Source: Dehalococcoidia bacterium
Lineage (GTDB): Bacteria; Chloroflexota; Dehalococcoidia; Lucifugimonadales; JADFKI01
NCBI GenBank assembly: GCA_965203895.1
Contig: CBDBDI010000003.1
Location: 200,584-264,583, forward strand
DNA length: 64,000 nt
Direction: 5' to 3'
Shown here in pieces: positions 6,195 through 47,796 of this stretch (position 1 is its first letter; every line of letters begins with the position of its first letter). A program made the translations under genes and the position numbers. The notes below the pieces were generated by a model. It had not been told where the DNA came from and did no database searches. It was given only the letters and a program-made list of their open reading frames with translations.

Positions 6195-7166
6195 ATGTCG
6201 GCAAAGGTGGTGTTTCTACACGGGCTGCGGCCTGAGATTGTGGATGTAATCACGGGACACACGCCGCAGGGTTGGACGACGACCGCGGTTCACCGCGACG
6301 AGCCGCTCGATCGTCAGACGGCGCTGGCGCGCGGCGCCGATTTCCTGATGGTGTATGCCGCGCCGCTGCCCGACGAAGTTCTGCGCGCCGCGGACAAAAC
6401 TCGCCTAGTGCAGCTTCTGGCGGCGGGCTACGATAGGATGAACCTGCCCCTGATGAGCGCGCTGGAAGTCCCCTGCGCCAACAACGGCGGCGCGAATTCA
6501 TGGGCGGTGGCAGACCATACATTGCTGCTGATGCTGGCGGTCTATCGGCGGCAGACGCACGCCGATCCCGCAACGCGCGCCGGCCGCTGGAGCGCGCCCA
6601 TAAGCGGCACGAACACCTTCGAGATGGCGAACAAACTCGTGGGCGTACTCGGTATGGGCAACATCGGGCGGCAGGTGGCGCGCCGCGTTCAGGGCTTTGA
6701 CGCGCAGGTTCAGTATTACGATATGTATCCGCTGCCGGAAGAGCGCGAGCGTGAGCTAAATGTGCGGCGGGTTTCGCTCGATACGCTGTTTCGCGCGTCG
6801 GACATTCTCACCTGCCACACGCCGCTTACGCCCGATACGCATCACATCGTCAACCGCGAGCGCCTGGCGCTGATGAAGCCCACGGCGGTTGTCATCAACA
6901 CAAGCCGCGGCCCCGTGGTGGATGAAGCGGCGCTGATAGAGGCGCTGCGGCAGGGCAGGATTGCGGGCGCAGGCTTGGATGTGTTTGAGCGAGAGCCGGT
7001 GGATCCCGCCAACCCGCTGCTTGCGATGGACAATGTGGTGGTAACGCCGCACAGCGCCGGGACTACTTGGGACACCTGGTTTCGGCGCGCCGAATTCGCG
7101 TATGAGAATATGATGCGCGTTTGGAACGGCGAAGCGCCGCTTGCCATAGCGCGGGAATTCGACTAG
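6195..7166 (+). CDS. D-isomer-specific 2-hydroxyacid dehydrogenase family (NAD-binding)
   Basis: VGVLGMGNIGRQVARRV (Rossmann motif), INTSRGPVVDEAALIEAL, GAGLDVFEREP, TPHSAG. The ATG at 6195 lies 8 nt after aagagg. Confidence 0.85.
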   Translation: MSAKVVFLHGLRPEIVDVITGHTPQGWTTTAVHRDEPLDRQTALARGADFLMVYAAPLPDEVLRAADKTRLVQLLAAGYDRMNLPLMSALEVPCANNGGANSWAVADHTLLLMLAVYRRQTHADPATRAGRWSAPISGTNTFEMANKLVGVLGMGNIGRQVARRVQGFDAQVQYYDMYPLPEERERELNVRRVSLDTLFRASDILTCHTPLTPDTHHIVNRERLALMKPTAVVINTSRGPVVDEAALIEALRQGRIAGAGLDVFEREPVDPANPLLAMDNVVVTPHSAGTTWDTWFRRAEFAYENMMRVWNGEAPLAIAREFD

Positions 7167-7249: not shown

Positions 7250-7561
7250 TTGGAACCGGTCATAAAGAACTATGAAGGCGAAGCCAATCCGATTTTGGGG
7301 CCGCAGGACGGCGTTCCCAACTATGTGATGCTGTATGTGCAGCATCCGCCGGGCGGCGCAAGCCCGGGACACATACACGCTTGGGAGCATCAGGCGTTCA
7401 TCACGGAAGGGGCGGGTGTGCTGTGGGTTGAAGGCAAAGAGTATCCCATCAAGCGGGGGGACGCCGTGCTTGTGCCGCCCAATGTGGAGCATCAGTTTCG
7501 CAATACGGGCGATGTTACGCTGAGCCGCGTAACCGTGAACCCGCTCAGTTCGGTGGAGTAG
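7250..7561 (+). CDS. Cupin domain protein
   Basis: GGASPGHIHAWEHQAFITEGAG...GDAVLVPPNVEHQFRNTG (cupin motifs 1 and 2). A TTG start follows gggagg. Confidence 0.8.
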   Translation: MEPVIKNYEGEANPILGPQDGVPNYVMLYVQHPPGGASPGHIHAWEHQAFITEGAGVLWVEGKEYPIKRGDAVLVPPNVEHQFRNTGDVTLSRVTVNPLSSVE

Positions 7562-7628: not shown

Positions 7629-10538
7629 CTACACCACCAGCCGCGCCCCCGCCGGCCGCCGCTTGCCCCCATGCACCGACGGCTCCGCGCACCACTTGGC
7701 GGCGAGCATCCGCACGCCCTCATACACAGTGTCGTCGAAGCCCAGCATATCGCAGACCACACGCCGATCCAGCAGCGCGCGGTTGGCGTCGGCGTCCGCA
7801 AGATACGCCGGCTGCAGCTCCAGTTCTCGGAACTCGTCGAAGATTTCCTGCGCCGTCGCAAGTTGCGCGTCGGTGAGGGCGCGCAGGTCTAGGGTGGGTA
7901 GATTATCCATGCCGCTGACTGTGATGTCTCCACGCCCGGCTTGTTGACGGCTTGAATGCCACCAATAACATAGCAAGCCAAGAGAGCTGTTGCCCCAAAT
8001 TGTGAAAGCGTAGTCAAAACGCCGATCTTCAAATTTCACATTGGGCCAAGCGCGCCCGCCTAGGCTTATTTGCTCTGTGTATGCTACCGAAAGCGGTTGT
8101 GCGGTGAAACGAAAACCGCGGCTTATATGCGCGCGACTCGCCATTGCCCATATCTCGGCGACTCTCGGCCTCATGCCTCGCCTTGCCCGCAGCTGCGAAT
8201 CGGGGACGCAGACCATTCGGGTTTCGTTTCGGGCGTTGTGGTTCCATAGCGCGGGATAGGTGGCGGTAGGGGACGGCGGGTGTTTGGTGAAAGGCGCATT
8301 GTGCGCGGCGCTTATCACCATTTGCGAGTCCAGTCCCCGCTGTCCGACTTCGCTTAATCGCGCGATAGGCAGTTCATGCGTTTCGGCGGCTACGGGAAGC
8401 CACAACTTGCCTTCGGATAGCGAATGCGCCGCTTGCGCCAGCGATGCGTCGTTCATGCGCGCAGCACCCCAGCCGGTCGCGTAGTTATCTATCGGAGCGT
8501 CCAACGCTTCCCCTACAAGATCCGCGCCGCAGTAGATCGGGACGCCGCCGTATGGACCGTCCTCAAGCCGATTCAACTCAGCGTCGGCGGCAATGCCGCG
8601 CGCGAACTCTCTCGACTCCACAAATCCCCCCGGCCTGTGCGTCAGCGATACGAACTCCGCGCGCTGACGCGGCTCCTCTTCAGGCTCCAGTTTGCGCGCC
8701 ACTATCAGGCATTCCGCTATTCCAGTATCCGACGAAAACGCCATATCCCTGCCAATGGATGCGATGCTCACAATCGTGGCATCCGTATATTGAGTGGCGA
8801 TGAGCTCCCTGAACTTCGCCCACGCAGCGCCGTTAATCGCGGTGAGCGGCAGCACCAGCGCCACTACGCCGCCTGGACGAACCTTTTTGTCTGCTATGGA
8901 CGCAAACGCCGAACCCAAACCCGCATGTCCGTGATAGTGAGAGCCGCGCGCTAATTGAATCAGCAACGTCGCCATATCATCCTGGTCTGCGATAGGCGCG
9001 CCGAAGGCGGCAAAGGCGGCGTTTAGTATGTTGCCATCCGCGTCCCTGTGCTTGGTGTTGCTGGTGAACGGGGGGTTCATTATCACGATGTCGAAGCCGT
9101 CGTCCAGTATGTCGACCGCGATTTGGGCGGCGGTCTCTTCGCCTATGCTGCCGGTTCGCAACGCAGGATCGCTTGTGTTGAACAGCGTCATAACAGACGA
9201 AGTTTGCAGCAGATCCAGCGATCCGATTTTCACGCTGCCGTCCGCTTGCCGTCCGTAGGGCATTGTGTACAAGCGTGAATTTTCGTAGCCGATGTTGGGT
9301 TGAATGCCGGACAGCGTTGCCCCGGTGATGTGAACGGCGGATGGCATTACATCGCAACCGTATAGCGCGTCTTCCATCATCGCCTTGTGCAGCGAAGCTG
9401 CGCTGCCGCCGGCGTGTTCGTGGCGTATGGAGAACTGCTCATACACGGCGGACAGCAGCGCCCCTGTGCCGCATGCGAAATCGCCCACGCGGAGCTTGCC
9501 GATGGCGTTTGCGTCTGCCCAGTCCACGTCTTTCAACTTGGCTACTGCTATGCGCGCGAGCAGCGCCGATGACGCCGGCAGCGTGTAGAAGGTGGCGAGA
9601 TACTTGCGGTCGGCTATGAGCCGCTGGAATATGCGCCCGGTGAGGTCGTGCGCGAATATGGCGCCGCCTGAGCTAATGCGCTGAGCGGTGTCCCGCAGTC
9701 GGTCGATGATTTGCGCCGCGTCATGCGCCGGAAGCTGATTCACGATGTCGCGCGCTATGGCGAATATCGCCCAGTAGTTGATTTGCAGGACGTCGTCCCA
9801 CGCCGCGTTTAGTTTGTCCCGCGGGTTGTCTTCGGCGGATGTCCAGAGCAAGTTAAGCGGCTTGACTTCGGCGTGCATCCCCGCGATGCGCTCATGGAAT
9901 ATGAGCGCGTTTGCGATGATGGCGCACGCCATTCTGCGGGTGGGCGGCAGGTCATCCATGCCCAGCAGGCGCGCGATTTCCTGATTTATGGCGGGGCGCA
10001 GCTTGCCCATATTGTCCAGGACGGCGACGGCGCGCTCGATGCCCTGCTCCAACACATCGGTGGCGGCGTCAACCGCGCGCTCCGACACGGACACCAATCG
10101 TATCAGGTCGGCAAGGTCTGACACGCCGCCCTGTAGCCAGCCTGATGCAGGAAAGCGCGCTTCGTCTTCTTCATAGAATACGGCGTATTCCAAGCGCGCC
10201 GATCGAATTGCGCCATCCAGGTCTGGAGCATTAGCAACATCCGACGGATAGCGCAACGCGATTGCGGATTCGATACGCTTGCCGCCGTCTGCCAGTTGCA
10301 AGCCAAGCCGCGCCTTTGCCTCATCCTCGGCGGTGTAGGCGGGAAGGTACTCGGCTTCAACTACGACGGGAGCGCGGTCGATTGCCGTAATCAGAATGTC
10401 GGGCTGCAAACCGGGATGGTCGCTGATAGCGCGCGTGGTTTCGGAGTGAACCGCGCAACTAGGCAACATGCGGCGCAGGATAGCGCCAAGTGCGTTGTTT
10501 GCGCTTGGCTCGGTTTGGCGCAGGGTAGTCATGGGCAA
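7629..10538 (-). CDS. Large (969 aa) gamma-class N6-adenine DNA methyltransferase-domain protein with unassigned N- and C-terminal regions (Type IIG-like or orphan defence methylase)
   Basis: Motif I VGDFACGTGALLSAV is followed by motif IV IVIMNPPFTSNTKH. The ~330-aa N-terminal region contains QPDILITAIDRAPVVVEAEY, a PD..ExE segment that lacks the canonical Lys. The ~400-aa C-terminal region is unassigned. Confidence 0.7.
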   Translation of the reverse strand: MPMTTLRQTEPSANNALGAILRRMLPSCAVHSETTRAISDHPGLQPDILITAIDRAPVVVEAEYLPAYTAEDEAKARLGLQLADGGKRIESAIALRYPSDVANAPDLDGAIRSARLEYAVFYEEDEARFPASGWLQGGVSDLADLIRLVSVSERAVDAATDVLEQGIERAVAVLDNMGKLRPAINQEIARLLGMDDLPPTRRMACAIIANALIFHERIAGMHAEVKPLNLLWTSAEDNPRDKLNAAWDDVLQINYWAIFAIARDIVNQLPAHDAAQIIDRLRDTAQRISSGGAIFAHDLTGRIFQRLIADRKYLATFYTLPASSALLARIAVAKLKDVDWADANAIGKLRVGDFACGTGALLSAVYEQFSIRHEHAGGSAASLHKAMMEDALYGCDVMPSAVHITGATLSGIQPNIGYENSRLYTMPYGRQADGSVKIGSLDLLQTSSVMTLFNTSDPALRTGSIGEETAAQIAVDILDDGFDIVIMNPPFTSNTKHRDADGNILNAAFAAFGAPIADQDDMATLLIQLARGSHYHGHAGLGSAFASIADKKVRPGGVVALVLPLTAINGAAWAKFRELIATQYTDATIVSIASIGRDMAFSSDTGIAECLIVARKLEPEEEPRQRAEFVSLTHRPGGFVESREFARGIAADAELNRLEDGPYGGVPIYCGADLVGEALDAPIDNYATGWGAARMNDASLAQAAHSLSEGKLWLPVAAETHELPIARLSEVGQRGLDSQMVISAAHNAPFTKHPPSPTATYPALWNHNARNETRMVCVPDSQLRARRGMRPRVAEIWAMASRAHISRGFRFTAQPLSVAYTEQISLGGRAWPNVKFEDRRFDYAFTIWGNSSLGLLCYWWHSSRQQAGRGDITVSGMDNLPTLDLRALTDAQLATAQEIFDEFRELELQPAYLADADANRALLDRRVVCDMLGFDDTVYEGVRMLAAKWCAEPSVHGGKRRPAGARLVV

Positions 10539-42480: not shown

Positions 42481-42512
42481 CTAAACGCAAAGGCGCAGAG
42501 GCGCAAAGGGGG
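42481..42512 (+). repeat. Dispersed octamer-periodic repeat, full copy
   Basis: ctaaacgcaaaggcgcagaggcgcaaaggggg, at the left edge of the AT-rich RHH/pVip cassette. Confidence 0.85.
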
Positions 42513-42560
42513 ATTTTTGTTTGGCGGAAATCGCAAGTTTATGGATTTCCAAATTAGGGC

Positions 42561-42589
42561 TTGCATAGATGATTGAATGTAAGTATAAT
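42561..42589 (+). promoter_or_regulatory. Near-consensus sigma70-type promoter
   Basis: -35 TTGCAT (42561-42566), an exact 17-nt spacer, and -10 TATAAT (42584-42589), in an AT-rich tract upstream of the RHH gene. Confidence 0.65.
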
Positions 42590-42625
42590 TATGCGTAATA
42601 TGTAATTCACATATGGAATTATGCG
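42587..42625 (+). promoter_or_regulatory. Operator-like repeat set overlapping the -10 and predicted transcription start
   Basis: The direct repeat AATTATGCG (42587-42595 and 42617-42625, 30 bp apart) flanks the palindrome ATATGT-aattc-ACATAT (42598-42614). Confidence 0.5.
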
Positions 42626-42654
42626 AAATAAGCAAACGGACAAGAGGCGACGAT

Positions 42655-43326
42655 ATGACTGACAAGCGTACTGAAGAGCAGAACGGGGACGCCAACGGCA
42701 ATGCGGGCGCTAACGACGGCGTGGGCGCAGACAGGGACAAGCGCAGGCTGTCGGACAACGTGGAGGGGCTTGTGGATGATGTGAACAAGGTGGTGAAGGT
42801 GGCGATCGAGCGAGGGACGGATGCCGCGGAGTCGCTGGGCGAAAACATTCGGGACACATTCCAAGGCATACGCTCCAACCGCGACAATGTGGTGATGGTG
42901 CGAGTTGACGCCGAAAGCCTCGCGCGGTTGGATGAGCTGGTGGACGCCGGCATAATGGGCAGCCGCTCCGAGGCGGCGGCGTTCCTGATAAGCGAAGGCA
43001 TCAAGGGGCGTCAGCCGCTGTTCGACAGGATCGCGGAGAAGGTTCAGGAGATACGCCGGGTGAAGGACGAGCTCCGCAACTTGGTGGATATAGAAGGAGA
43101 GGATATGCCAAAGGAAAAAACGCACGTGCAGTACAACTATGGAAAGGCTAGGGATGAGTGGGGCCCGTCGGTGGCTGACGCCATCTGGGATAAGTTCCCA
43201 AGCGTCAAAACTCAAGCCAGGGCGACGCTTGCAGAAGACGAGCGCCTCAAAAGAGAGCCTAAGGCAGCGTCCGTGCGGTCTGTGATTGACGAAATCGTCA
43301 ATAGGTCGCTGGGGCGTGGGGATTAG
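42655..43326 (+). CDS. Ribbon-helix-helix (CopG-like) domain protein with long flanking regions
   Basis: The ATG at 42655 follows aagagg. The RHH core is NVVMVRVDAESLARLDELVDAGIMGSRSEAAAFLISEGIK. It has a low-complexity acidic N-terminus and an unassigned ~100-aa C-terminal region. Confidence 0.65.
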   Translation: MTDKRTEEQNGDANGNAGANDGVGADRDKRRLSDNVEGLVDDVNKVVKVAIERGTDAAESLGENIRDTFQGIRSNRDNVVMVRVDAESLARLDELVDAGIMGSRSEAAAFLISEGIKGRQPLFDRIAEKVQEIRRVKDELRNLVDIEGEDMPKEKTHVQYNYGKARDEWGPSVADAIWDKFPSVKTQARATLAEDERLKREPKAASVRSVIDEIVNRSLGRGD

Positions 43327-43338
43327 GGTTAAGCGAAT

Positions 43339-43369
43339 ATGTAGGGACGGGCGCTATCCGTCTCTACAT
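43339..43369 (+). promoter_or_regulatory. Intercistronic hairpin between the RHH gene and pVip
   Basis: atgtagggacgg-gcgctat-ccgtctctacat forms a 12-bp stem with one mismatch. There is no U-tract after it. Confidence 0.5.
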
Positions 43370-43405
43370 TATCGAATGTCATTCTGAACAAAGCGCTGAT
43401 AATCA

Positions 43406-44305
43406 GTGAACAACGAACAAAGGATGGTTGAGACTATGCCTATATCAACCGAAGTTCCATCGGTCAATTACCACCTGTGGAAGTTCTGCAATATGAGTTG
43501 CGACTTCTGCTTCGCCACATTTCAGGATGTAGAGCAAGATACGCTGCCGAAAGGCCACTTATCGCGAGAGGATAGCCTTCTTCTTATAGATATGCTGGCT
43601 CAGTGGGGGTTTGAGAAAATCAATTTCGCGGGCGGCGAGCCGACGCTCTGCCCGTGGTTGTCCGAACTGATTGCGCTGGCAAAAGAGCGCGGGATGGTTA
43701 CATCCATAGTTACCAACGGCTCGCGAATTACCTCCGAGTGGTTGGATGGACTGAATGGCAATCTTGATTGGATTGCGCTGAGCATAGACACCGTTGACCC
43801 GGAAAAGCTGAAGCGATCGGGACGGGCGGTTCAAAACAAGCCTATATCCCGGGAGGGCTACCTACAAATCATCGGCAGGATAAAGCGGAGTGGGATACGC
43901 CTGAAAATCAACACCGTTGTAACTTCCGCAACATGGGAAGAGGACTTTGCCGACTTCATAAGGGCGGCGAACCCTGAACGCTGGAAGATACTGCAAGCGC
44001 TTGCCGTCGACGGACAGAATGACGGGCGCATCGATAAGTACGCAGTCGACGCAGCGCGGTTTGAACGATATGTCGAGTGCAATCGATCCGTTGAAAGCGA
44101 AGGCATAGTCGTGGTGCCGGAGAACAACGAAATGATGACGGGGAGTTACATTATGGTTGACCCCGCCGGCCGCTTCTTCGACAACACTCAAGGCGCTCAC
44201 ACTTACAGCAGCCCTATTCTTGAGGTGGGAATTGCGGATGCGCTGAAGGAAGTATCCGTAAATGCCGAGCGTTTTCGCCAAAGGGGCGGGCGATACGCTT
44301 GGTGA
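43406..44305 (+). CDS. Prokaryotic viperin (pVip), radical-SAM nucleotide dehydratase
   Basis: NYHLWKFCNMSCDFCF (CxxxCxxC), EKINFAGGEPTL, SIVTNGS, LDWIALSIDTVD, LKINTVV, RWKILQAL, VPENNEMMTGSYIMVD and the C-terminal FRQRGGRYAW are collinear with animal and prokaryotic viperins. The likely true start is ATG 43424 or 43436. Confidence 0.9.
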   Translation: MNNEQRMVETMPISTEVPSVNYHLWKFCNMSCDFCFATFQDVEQDTLPKGHLSREDSLLLIDMLAQWGFEKINFAGGEPTLCPWLSELIALAKERGMVTSIVTNGSRITSEWLDGLNGNLDWIALSIDTVDPEKLKRSGRAVQNKPISREGYLQIIGRIKRSGIRLKINTVVTSATWEEDFADFIRAANPERWKILQALAVDGQNDGRIDKYAVDAARFERYVECNRSVESEGIVVVPENNEMMTGSYIMVDPAGRFFDNTQGAHTYSSPILEVGIADALKEVSVNAERFRQRGGRYAW

Positions 44306-44324
44306 ATTAGGCAAGCGGCAAGGA

Positions 44325-44360
44325 TCTTAACGCAAAGGCGCGGGGGCGCAAAGGGTATGG
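44325..44360 (+). repeat. Dispersed octamer-periodic repeat, full copy
   Basis: tcttaacgcaaaggcgcgggggcgcaaagggtatgg, 20 nt after the pVip stop. Confidence 0.85.
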
Positions 44361-44381
44361 TTAGTAGAAAGGAGGGCAAGT

Positions 44382-44582
44382 ATGGCGCGCAGGCAACGCT
44401 TTAACTATATGGAGCCGATACAACCGGAGTGGTGCGCGGCGGACAACAAGTATATCTACCTGAATAAGGTTGAGGCGGAGCGCGCTGCCGGACGCGCATT
44501 CGCGGAACGGGGGGACGAAGTTCGGGTGTATCAAGGTACCCATTGCGGACATTGGCATCTGACCAAATCGGCGCAGTGGTGA
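44382..44582 (+). CDS. Small (66 aa) protein with a C-terminal HCGHWHLT motif
   Basis: MARRQRFNYMEPIQPEWCAADNKYIYLNKVEAERAAGRAFAERGDEVRVYQGTHCGHWHLTKSAQW. RBS aaggaggg. Flanked on both sides by the dispersed repeat. Confidence 0.5.
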   Translation: MARRQRFNYMEPIQPEWCAADNKYIYLNKVEAERAAGRAFAERGDEVRVYQGTHCGHWHLTKSAQW

Positions 44583-44617: not shown

Positions 44618-44653
44618 GTTTAACGCAAAGGCGCAGGGACGCAAAGGGGATGG
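44618..44653 (+). repeat. Dispersed octamer-periodic repeat, full copy
   Basis: gtttaacgcaaaggcgcagggacgcaaaggggatgg. Confidence 0.85.
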
Positions 44654-46659: not shown

Positions 46660-47070
46660 ATGACGCTTAAAGAACAGCCCATAGAGAGCCACGAAATCCA
46701 CAGTCGGCGTCTGTTGGCGCACGCCGAAGAGTGGCTTGAGAAAGGCGATCGCCTGCAGGCTTCCGAGAAGGCATGGGGTGCTGTGGCTCACTACTTCAAA
46801 GTCATCGCGGATCGGCGCGGGTGGGAGTACGAAACGCACGCCGACGCCTTTGAGGTGGCGCGCAGTTTCGCCGTTGAGCAGGATAACCCGACGATAAGAA
46901 CGCTGTTCGATGTGGCGCATGGGATGCGCATAAACTATTACAAGGACGCCAAGACGCTTGATTACATCAGAAGGCAACTCGACGATGTGAAGGCGCTGCT
47001 TGACATACTGCAGCGCGCGGAGCCGCCCGTTGCGCCTGAAGGCGGCGATGGCGCTCTCAAAGACAACTAA
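46660..47070 (+). CDS. PaREP1-like (HEPN-fold-like) protein, copy 1
   Basis: HSRRLLAHAEEWLEKGDRLQASEKAWGAVAHYFKVIADRRGWEYETH resembles the PaREP1 signature as I recall it. Family assignment is from memory, not from a search. Confidence 0.55.
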   Translation: MTLKEQPIESHEIHSRRLLAHAEEWLEKGDRLQASEKAWGAVAHYFKVIADRRGWEYETHADAFEVARSFAVEQDNPTIRTLFDVAHGMRINYYKDAKTLDYIRRQLDDVKALLDILQRAEPPVAPEGGDGALKDN

Positions 47071-47082
47071 AAGCGCTGTGGG

Positions 47083-47358
47083 ATGCCCAAAAGCCAAGCA
47101 ACCGGGAAAGTGAAAGACATGCAGCGTGAACGGATACGCCTGTGGTGGGACGGCGAAGGCGATTTTCTGTATGTCGCTTTCGCGGATGGGGATGGCGATA
47201 TGGTTCGCACGCAGGACGGCAAGGCGATGGTCAAGGTTGACGATAACGGCAATGTTCTGGGCTTTCAACTGCTTGGCGTGTCCAAGCGCGGCAATGGGCG
47301 CAAGCCGCTGAGTGTAACGCTAACGCCTGAGACCGATGCTGACGAATTCGCACCTTAG
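47083..47358 (+). CDS. DUF2283-like small protein
   Basis: IRLWWDGEGDFLYVAFADGDGDMVRTQDGKAMVKVDDNGNVLGFQLLGVSK fits the YD-x-E-x-D-x-LY...G-x-(I/V)-x-G-(I/F)-E pattern of DUF2283. An alternative start is ATG 47119. Confidence 0.6.
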   Translation: MPKSQATGKVKDMQRERIRLWWDGEGDFLYVAFADGDGDMVRTQDGKAMVKVDDNGNVLGFQLLGVSKRGNGRKPLSVTLTPETDADEFAP

Positions 47359-47424
47359 TCCTGTAAGGTAATATAGCCCAAGTCCTGAATCTTTAGCGCG
47401 CCAAACCCAACGGGGGATGTTTCA

Positions 47425-47796
47425 ATGACAATCAGAGAGCGGCCGATAGAAAGCCATTTGGTACACAGCCGGCGTCTGTTGGCGCACGCCGAAGAGTGGC
47501 TCGATAAGGGGGACCGACTGCAAACATCCGAGAAGGCGTGGGGTGCTGTTGCCCACTACTTCAAAATCATCGCGGATAGTCGCGGCTGGGAATATGAGAC
47601 GCACACGGACGCGTTTCAGGTGGCGCATAATATCGCCATTGAGCAGGACAATCCACTCATAAGACAATACTTCTCCATAGCCTATGGTATGCACGTCAAC
47701 TTTTACGGGGACGCTAATCCACTGGAATTCCTTCGCGACGAGCTTGAGAATGTGAAGGAACTGATGGATATTCTGGAGCGCATAGACATAGAATAA
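47425..47796 (+). CDS. PaREP1-like (HEPN-fold-like) protein, copy 2
   Basis: Paralog of 46660..47070: HSRRLLAHAEEWLDKGDRLQTSEKAWGAVAHYFKIIADSRGWEYETH. Confidence 0.55.
   Translation: MTIRERPIESHLVHSRRLLAHAEEWLDKGDRLQTSEKAWGAVAHYFKIIADSRGWEYETHTDAFQVAHNIAIEQDNPLIRQYFSIAYGMHVNFYGDANPLEFLRDELENVKELMDILERIDIE

Follow-up and report, generated by a model that had tools for sequence, protein, structure and literature searches.

Prokaryotic viperins (pVips) are radical S-adenosylmethionine (SAM) enzymes that convert a nucleoside triphosphate into its chain-terminating 3'-deoxy-3',4'-didehydro form, by which phage transcription is blocked. One such gene lies in a stretch of 64,000 nucleotides (nt) from an uncultured Dehalococcoidia bacterium (assembly GCA_965203895.1, contig CBDBDI010000003.1, positions 200,584 to 264,583 of the forward strand). 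This whole stretch is called the window, and positions are given in its own numbering. A preliminary description of the DNA, made from its letters, read the viperin gene as the second of a pair, preceded on the same strand by a 223-amino-acid (aa) protein with a ribbon-helix-helix (RHH) core that was taken for a dedicated partner. The follow-up analysis presented here leads to a simpler picture: the gene is probably an ordinary stand-alone pVip in an accessory cassette, which lies beside a resident, probably autoregulated RHH-like gene, with no dedicated RHH-viperin system. The features on which the argument relies, with the evidence used to call them in brackets, are the following.

42484..42509, + strand: dispersed motif AACGCAAAGGCGC-NNN-GGCGCAAAGG, upstream of the RHH-like promoter (motif count)
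42561..42589, + strand: promoter of the RHH-like gene, TTGCAT, 17 nt, TATAAT, with the -35 box at 42561-42566 and the -10 box at 42584-42589 (conserved in close relatives)
42589..42628, + strand: operator-like region (TTATGCGTAA, GTAATATGTAAT, ATATGT..ACATAT and a second AATTATGCGAAA)
42655..43104, + strand: RHH-like core, resident gene, residues 1-150 of the 223-aa fusion open reading frame (homology, synteny, G+C content at third codon positions, RHH similarity)
43105..43326, + strand: small73, formerly a separate 73-aa gene (MPKEKTHVQYNYG...), residues 151-223 of the fusion (stand-alone homologues)
43339..43369, + strand: 13-bp hairpin including two G-U pairs, 3' of the fusion stop codon (conserved in the related loci L001, L003, L009 and L012)
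43376..43403, + strand: promoter-like ATGTCA, 16 nt, GATAAT in the leader (9 of 12 positions matching; same leader before orf66 in pVip-less relatives)
43425..44373, + strand: inserted unit of 949 nt, made of the pVip gene and a 3' dispersed motif (empty-site junctions in L012 and L009)
43436..44305, + strand: pVip, 289 aa, with the radical-SAM motif CNMSCDFC (Pfam, PADLOC and NCBIfam matches)
44329..44354, + strand: dispersed motif, 3' end of the pVip unit (motif count)
44382..44582, + strand: orf66, accessory-cassette gene for a conserved Cys/His protein of 66 aa (...CGHWHLT...) (PHROG matches)
44622..44647, + strand: dispersed motif, between orf66 and the acyl-CoA synthetase (ACS) gene (motif count)

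The viperin and its RHH-like neighbour

The open reading frame (ORF) at 43406..44305 had been described as viperin-like, and every motif quoted for it is found in its translation. Its likely start is the ATG at 43436, where the relatives also start, the ATG at 43424 not being conserved. The resulting ORF 43436..44305 is a bona fide prokaryotic viperin. It matches Pfam Radical_SAM (E 8.7e-22), the PADLOC pVip models PDLC02903/02904/02905 (E 5e-89 to 5e-104) and, over residues 19-294, the NCBIfam model NF038283 viperin_w_prok with 311.3 bits for a cutoff of 180. Both the CxxxCxxC cluster motif (CNMSCDFC) and the SAM-binding GGE motif (FAGGEP) are found in the translation, which aligns with solved viperins across residues 7-289 at a similarity level of 32-43 bits per 100 aa, and whose C-terminus carries the viperin-specific region, ending in ...RGGRYAW. 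The gene is under purifying selection (dN/dS 0.15-0.28), and by analogy with the viperin family in general it would be expected to perform the antiviral chemistry outlined above. The pVips of the window's lineage form a tight clade (at least 87% identity), while the closest pVips outside it reach just 69-70% identity and are from genomes of much larger size, a pattern that is consistent with horizontal acquisition. The cassette had also been called AT-rich; the GC content of the pVip gene is indeed lower than that of the window (0.53 vs 0.60), but the effect is only modest.

The upstream gene has a different history. Its RHH-like core belongs to a widespread family of proteins of ~135 aa, for which 649 homologues were found. 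The RHH signal reported for this protein is real and marks a probable DNA-binding core, but it remains below the Pfam threshold: RHH_1 matches the whole 223-aa protein at E 0.0056, with scores of 17-19.9 bits under the 20.5 cutoff (19.9 for the domain alone), and it matches 16 of 22 diverse family members at E <= 0.1 (best E 1.8e-4), none of which reaches the gathering score. A further match links the protein to PHROG 4738, annotated as 'transcriptional repressor' (E 1.7e-5). Profile searches of the PDB with the family returned only spurious coiled-coil or helical matches and no solved relative by sequence. Membership of the mycobacterial AbmR family (NCBIfam NF058631) was considered and rejected, residues 79-136 giving a weak match to the C-terminal part of the model (E 0.0025, 17.4 bits vs a cutoff of 160). 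An RHH antitoxin of a type II toxin-antitoxin system was also rejected, as many loci are free of cargo, with 98-230 nt separating the RHH-like gene from the conserved gene that follows, and the cargo found elsewhere is heterogeneous. The core is under purifying selection, with dN/dS values of 0.06-0.21.

A genome scan for relatives of the RHH-like gene, restricted to one genome per species, yielded 112 of them, nearly all in metagenome-assembled genomes (MAGs) of Dehalococcoidia or SAR202, with some in Poribacteria and Spirochaetia. The best genome match, L011, is a Dehalococcoidia MAG chromosome whose RHH-like protein is 95% identical to that of the window. Two syntenic neighbourhoods can be distinguished. 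In the first, to which the window belongs, a MatE gene points away from the RHH-like gene, which is followed on its own strand by the ACS gene; the second has the order MetH, RHH-like gene, racemase-like gene and is shared by more than 20 species, L075 being the single one among them with a pVip. Among the ~40 RHH-like loci that could be anchored in this way, pVip is confined to the window's own lineage and to L075. The regulator is not missing where the viperin is: the pVip-less first-class loci L005, L012-L025 and L030 have the RHH-like gene behind the same promoter and operator, as do more than 20 loci of the second class. The RHH-like gene is thus a conserved resident family gene that mostly occurs without viperin, and the tie to viperin that had been proposed is contradicted by its presence in the two neighbourhoods of dozens of pVip-less Dehalococcoidia species. 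In the MetH-class loci, the gene 3' of the RHH-like gene usually encodes a protein of ~160 aa that carries a GIY-YIG nuclease motif and is rich in Gly/Ser at its N-terminus, and the two genes form a recurring pair (L038, L041, L045, L048, L052, L053, L056, L058 and L059; ~6410-6980).

The converse search gave the same answer. Among 80 metagenomic loci carrying pVips 48-68% identical to that of the window, 62 of which have at least 700 nt of upstream sequence, the RHH-like gene was found in none (0/80; tblastn at E <= 0.01) and small73 in none (0/80). The RHH-like gene, put forward as a dedicated viperin partner, therefore does not accompany related pVips. In the nearest outgroup locus (L171), the pVip (P0148, 69% identical) is followed by a thymidylate-kinase gene.

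A family-wide promoter and operator

The preliminary description placed the gene pair behind a promoter with operator-like repeats, and such an arrangement does precede it. The promoter was called near-consensus, which holds for the -10 box alone; the -35 box matches TTGACA at only 3 of 6 positions and is not listed by a consensus scan. The two direct repeats, AATTATGCG at 42587 and 42617, are 30 nt apart as reported, and the ATATGT/ACATAT palindrome spans 42598-42614. Comparison with the family gives these elements another meaning. TTATGCGTAA at 42589-42598 is the window's copy, with one mismatch, of a family palindrome TTAC-NN-GTAA; it is followed by GTAATATGTAAT at 42596-42607 and by a second copy, AATTATGCGAAA, at 42617-42628. 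The 'direct repeats' AATTATGCG are the left half of the family operator and a degenerate second copy of it, and in most close relatives the first of them reads AATTATGTG.

The exact form TTACNNGTAA (TTAC-NN-GTAA) occurs upstream of 65 of 80 RHH-like genes, over the -10 box or transcription start. It is strongly enriched at this position: of 77 exact occurrences in 952 kb, 70 fall in the 280-nt windows upstream of family genes, where they are ~420-fold denser than in the remaining 930 kb. The related arrangement GTAAT-NN-GTAAT is found in 17 of the 80 family loci (vs ~0.8 expected). The general layout of the family is TTGACA, 17 nt and TAnnAT, followed or overlapped by TTAC-NN-GTAA, frequently with an extra GTAAT half-site. 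The same count gave no copy of the TTAC-NN-GTAA operator before pVip itself. The promoter and operator thus belong to the RHH-like family, irrespective of pVip, and the operator is family-wide where it had been presented as tied to viperin. Given the conserved operator, the sub-threshold RHH_1 matches and the PHROG repressor match together, the RHH-like protein most likely represses its own promoter: it would bind the candidate operator TTAC-NN-GTAA over the -10 box and transcription start.

Gene fusion, insertion and the accessory cassette

The 223-aa 'RHH protein' is particular to this lineage, in which the RHH-like gene and small73 have become joined in frame. Its homologues fall into three length classes: proteins of 223-231 aa that match over the full length (83-97% identical, the range also found for those of exactly 223 aa), proteins of 158-175 aa that match the first two-thirds only (~90% identical), and hundreds of proteins of 130-147 aa that are ~74% identical across residues ~28-150. 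In the alignment, the last 73 residues of the fusion are found in the longest class only. Elsewhere they correspond to stand-alone proteins of 71-75 aa. In L001, a close relative that carries pVip, a 160-codon RHH-like gene ends in a stop codon and is followed by the dispersed motif, then by a separate small ORF with its own Shine-Dalgarno sequence and start, GGGAGAGGAT-GTG; small73 is also a separate gene in the pVip-bearing close relative L008. The alignment with L001 can be read as the loss of ~65 nt from the window's lineage, taking with it the RHH stop codon and the dispersed motif. A deletion of this size would have produced the in-frame fusion and its 223-aa ORF. The G+C content at third codon positions (GC3) falls from 0.78 to 0.65 exactly at the junction.

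The fused part is itself conserved, small73 being under purifying selection (dN/dS 0.09-0.45). Its AlphaFold2 (AF2) model reaches a pLDDT of 86 and has the layout beta-alpha-alpha-beta-alpha-alpha, for which a tandem-RHH reading was dropped as a mere guess, with no fold or family match to support it. Neither Pfam nor PHROG gave a match, and Foldseek found none in the PDB (best E 2.3). The gene is rare, with only 19 cluster representatives of its homologues in 1.8 billion proteins. In L012 (6530-6733), which has no pVip, a conserved Trp codon of small73 has changed from TGG to TGA, which suggests a pseudogene or a sequencing error.

These findings bear directly on the model first proposed for the locus, in which the 223-aa protein acts as a dedicated repressor that responds to infection, or else forms the second component of a two-gene viperin system, with its C-terminal ~100 aa as a possible sensor. 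The adjacency of the two genes on one strand and the operator-like repeats at the promoter speak for it, as does the persistence of the fusion, seen in at least 16 protein clusters with identities as low as 83%, its added part being under purifying selection. Nevertheless, the presumed sensor is a separate gene in the pVip-bearing L001 and L008, fused to the RHH-like gene in the window's lineage only, and small73 also occurs without pVip in L012 and L026. The RHH-like gene is missing from all 80 related pVip loci and stands without pVip in most of the ~40 syntenic ones, and the operator is conserved regardless of pVip. Taken together, this makes a dedicated regulator or sensor highly improbable.

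The pVip gene reached its place by insertion. The 949-nt unit is bounded by AAAGGA direct repeats (43419-43424 and 44368-44373), and the empty junction seen in L012, which lacks pVip, and in L009 equals the left and right flanks of the window joined with a single AAAGGA. In both, the hairpin and leader run straight into orf66. Since the joined flanks reproduce the empty junction, the pVip unit is an insertion into the Shine-Dalgarno region of orf66. It thereby inherited the orf66 leader, with its hairpin and weak promoter-like site. The hairpin between the two genes had been given as 12 bp and is found with 13, including two G-U pairs; the surrounding 121 nt (43320-43440) fold with z = -3.2 vs shuffled sequences. 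L009 has the pVip unit and small73 in the reverse order.

The dispersed motif was reported to flank the cassette, and copies are found at 42484 and 44329, with a third at 44622. The window holds seven copies (vs 0 expected), all on the + strand: 7187, 14588, 14810, 26545, 42484, 44329 and 44622. In a fuller form the motif reads TTAACGCAAAGGCGC-RGRG-RCGCAAAGG, and its conservation is limited to a core of 26-30 nt. It often lies 5-25 nt upstream of a Shine-Dalgarno sequence (before orf66, and before small73 in L001, with the copy at L001 8487), and copies are found after the RHH-like gene (in L001), after pVip and after orf66. An integron-like cassette boundary was not adopted as an interpretation, the motif being short and not palindromic, with only its core conserved. 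L075 has a dispersed repeat of its own, GTGGTTCGACARGCTCACCATGAGCGG, at 7272-7298 and 8291-8317; one copy stands right after the pVip stop codon, mirroring the pVip unit of the window.

The third cassette gene, orf66, is kept by every relative of the lineage, whether or not pVip is there, is under purifying selection (dN/dS 0.13-0.31) and matches two phage protein families of unassigned function (phrog_15216, E 1.6e-6; phrog_3424, E 8e-5). A phage origin of the cassette was considered and rejected, since a search of IMG/VR gave no relatives of small73 or of the RHH-like gene, and a single distant one of orf66 (contig L172). The GC3 of small73, pVip and orf66 is 0.61-0.66, that of host genes 0.73-0.83, and the RHH-like core is host-like at 0.78. 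In the proposed history, small73, pVip and orf66 would form a small horizontally acquired accessory cassette, into which the 949-nt pVip unit dropped, at a variable spot between the RHH-like and ACS genes, both of them conserved in the host.

Small73 and/or orf66 could also be proposed as the true viperin partner, for instance as a small protein that travels with pVip and has a DNA-binding or modulatory role. Small73 adjoins pVip at every pVip locus of the lineage, upstream in the window, L001, L003 and L008 and downstream in L009; all three genes share the lower GC3, the small73 model has a repeated beta-alpha-alpha layout, orf66 matches phage families, and an orf66-like ORF lies ~400 nt after an unrelated pVip in L115. 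On the other side, L012 has both small73 and orf66 but no pVip, small73 stands alone beside the ACS gene in L026, none of the 80 other pVip loci has small73, for which searches gave no fold or family match, and the pVip unit was inserted between the two genes, which are not part of one co-inherited block with it. A partnership of this kind is improbable.

Expression of the viperin gene and comparison with known systems

The site of the cassette is variable. Across loci, the conserved downstream gene begins 98 to 2544 nt past the stop codon of the RHH-like gene, and the cargo in this gap is heterogeneous, including a Uma2 nuclease, EcsC-like and GIY-YIG proteins, membrane proteins and PDC-M09A-like paralogs. 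In L006 (8331-12093), pVip is cut after 16 codons, unrelated genes take its place and the ACS gene is no longer adjacent. The replacing genes encode a malate-synthase C-terminal fragment, a 277-aa ORF, a DnaJ-ankyrin-repeat protein (396 aa) and a BrnT-toxin-domain protein. The space between the ACS gene and the luciferase-like monooxygenase (LLM) gene is a second variable spot, beside the pVip cassette; in the window (46660-47796), it holds genes for PaREP1 (136 aa), DUF2283 (91 aa) and a further PaREP1 (123 aa).

Several observations weigh against the stand-alone reading, some of which point to promoter capture, where the strong autoregulated promoter of the RHH-like gene would also transcribe genes inserted just 3' of that gene, pVip here and in L075 among them. 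Their basal level would then depend on the RHH-like protein, and the locus would offer accessory and defence genes a platform for expression, or a small hotspot. No canonical terminator is called between the fusion ORF and pVip and no U-tract follows the hairpin, so that read-through from the RHH-like promoter is possible, and this promoter is strongly conserved together with its operator. In L075, a 132-aa RHH-like paralog behind a near-consensus promoter is followed after 46 nt by a co-oriented pVip, which hints that the position is favoured. As the L075 pVip is not sister to the window's clade in a neighbour-joining tree (without support values), two non-sister pVips lie 3' of paralogous RHH-like genes. 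In 25 of 28 loci, the first cargo ORF points the same way as the RHH-like gene, many of these ORFs starting 12-112 nt past its stop codon in an operon-like manner, and some cargo matches PADLOC models of candidate defence genes, namely PDC-M09A in L039 (E 7e-22) and Uma2/PDC-S03 in L016 (E 1e-10). Two further points concern the neighbour itself: the RHH assignment is based on sub-threshold profile matches, while the AF2 monomer model of the fusion is poor (mean pLDDT 49.7, too low to use), and the persistence of the fusion down to 83% protein identity means that it may have acquired a function.

Further details of the cargo can be given here. L039 (6703-8807) has two tandem paralogous proteins of 331-354 aa 3' of the RHH-like gene, which match PDC-M09A at E 7e-22 and 1e-17, and in L016, L019 and L025 this place is taken by Uma2-type nuclease genes (PDC-S03).

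The case for promoter capture is countered by the arrangement of the window itself. The hairpin, a separate promoter-like site and 109 nt in all separate the fusion ORF from pVip, which took over the leader of orf66 and does not abut the RHH-like gene. Variability is not specific to the RHH-like gene either, the adjoining ACS-LLM gap being equally variable (49-1346 nt; 49-56 nt in 10 of 21 loci measured and ~1200 nt in the window's lineage). L075, which came from a search conditioned on the RHH-like gene, is a single extra case of little statistical weight, and much of the cargo (GIY-YIG, EcsC-like and membrane proteins) is not related to defence. Co-transcription of pVip from the autoregulated RHH-like promoter is plausible, and promoter capture as a general explanation of the locus is rather unlikely. 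If true, it would show one way in which defence genes that lack a promoter come to be expressed. On a more speculative note, accessory genes without a promoter, those for defence above all, may preferentially land and be expressed directly 3' of the conserved, autoregulated RHH-like genes of bacteria of the Dehalococcoidia/SAR202 type, with viperin (twice, independently), PDC-M09A-like genes and Uma2 nuclease genes as candidates, and the fusion of the regulator with small73 could couple the promoter to a new signal.

The stand-alone reading remains the probable one. A DNA-binding gene on the same strand, together with operator-like repeats, mimicked a dedicated regulator, where the defence gene was a later insertion, and the case cautions against over-reading adjacency. 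It has several by-products: a well-defined uncharacterised family of RHH-like regulators with a sharply conserved candidate operator, TTAC-NN-GTAA, a clean case of gene fusion by a small deletion, and a pVip insertion resolved to the base pair in an uncultured marine or sponge-type Chloroflexota lineage.

Comparison with known systems places each gene of the locus. With the known pVip families, the viperin of the window shares a full-length match above curated cutoffs, the CxxxCxxC and GGEP motifs and the C-terminal viperin region. It differs from the nearest outgroup pVip and from the best-scoring 'pVip-kinase' PADLOC models in having no adjacent nucleotide kinase, and its host is an uncultured Dehalococcoidia lineage; it can be regarded as a new, stand-alone member that needs no dedicated partner. 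A palindromic operator that overlaps the gene's own -10 box and transcription start is the classic arrangement of RHH autoregulation. With the RHH autorepressors of the CopG/Arc/MetJ type, the RHH-like family shares this arrangement in 65 of 80 members, as well as the pattern of a beta-strand and two helices (NVVMVRVD / ESLARLDELVDAG / SRSEAAAFLISEG) and consistent weak RHH_1 matches, to which it adds a conserved N-terminal helical region and a long C-terminal helix. Regulators located beside the defence systems they control, such as the WYL-type BrxR/CapW, co-vary with these systems. The locus resembles them in having a small DNA-binding gene directly upstream of, and co-oriented with, the defence gene, whereas in the present case the regulator stays in place as a resident gene, and the defence gene is just one cargo among the many alternatives found downstream of it.

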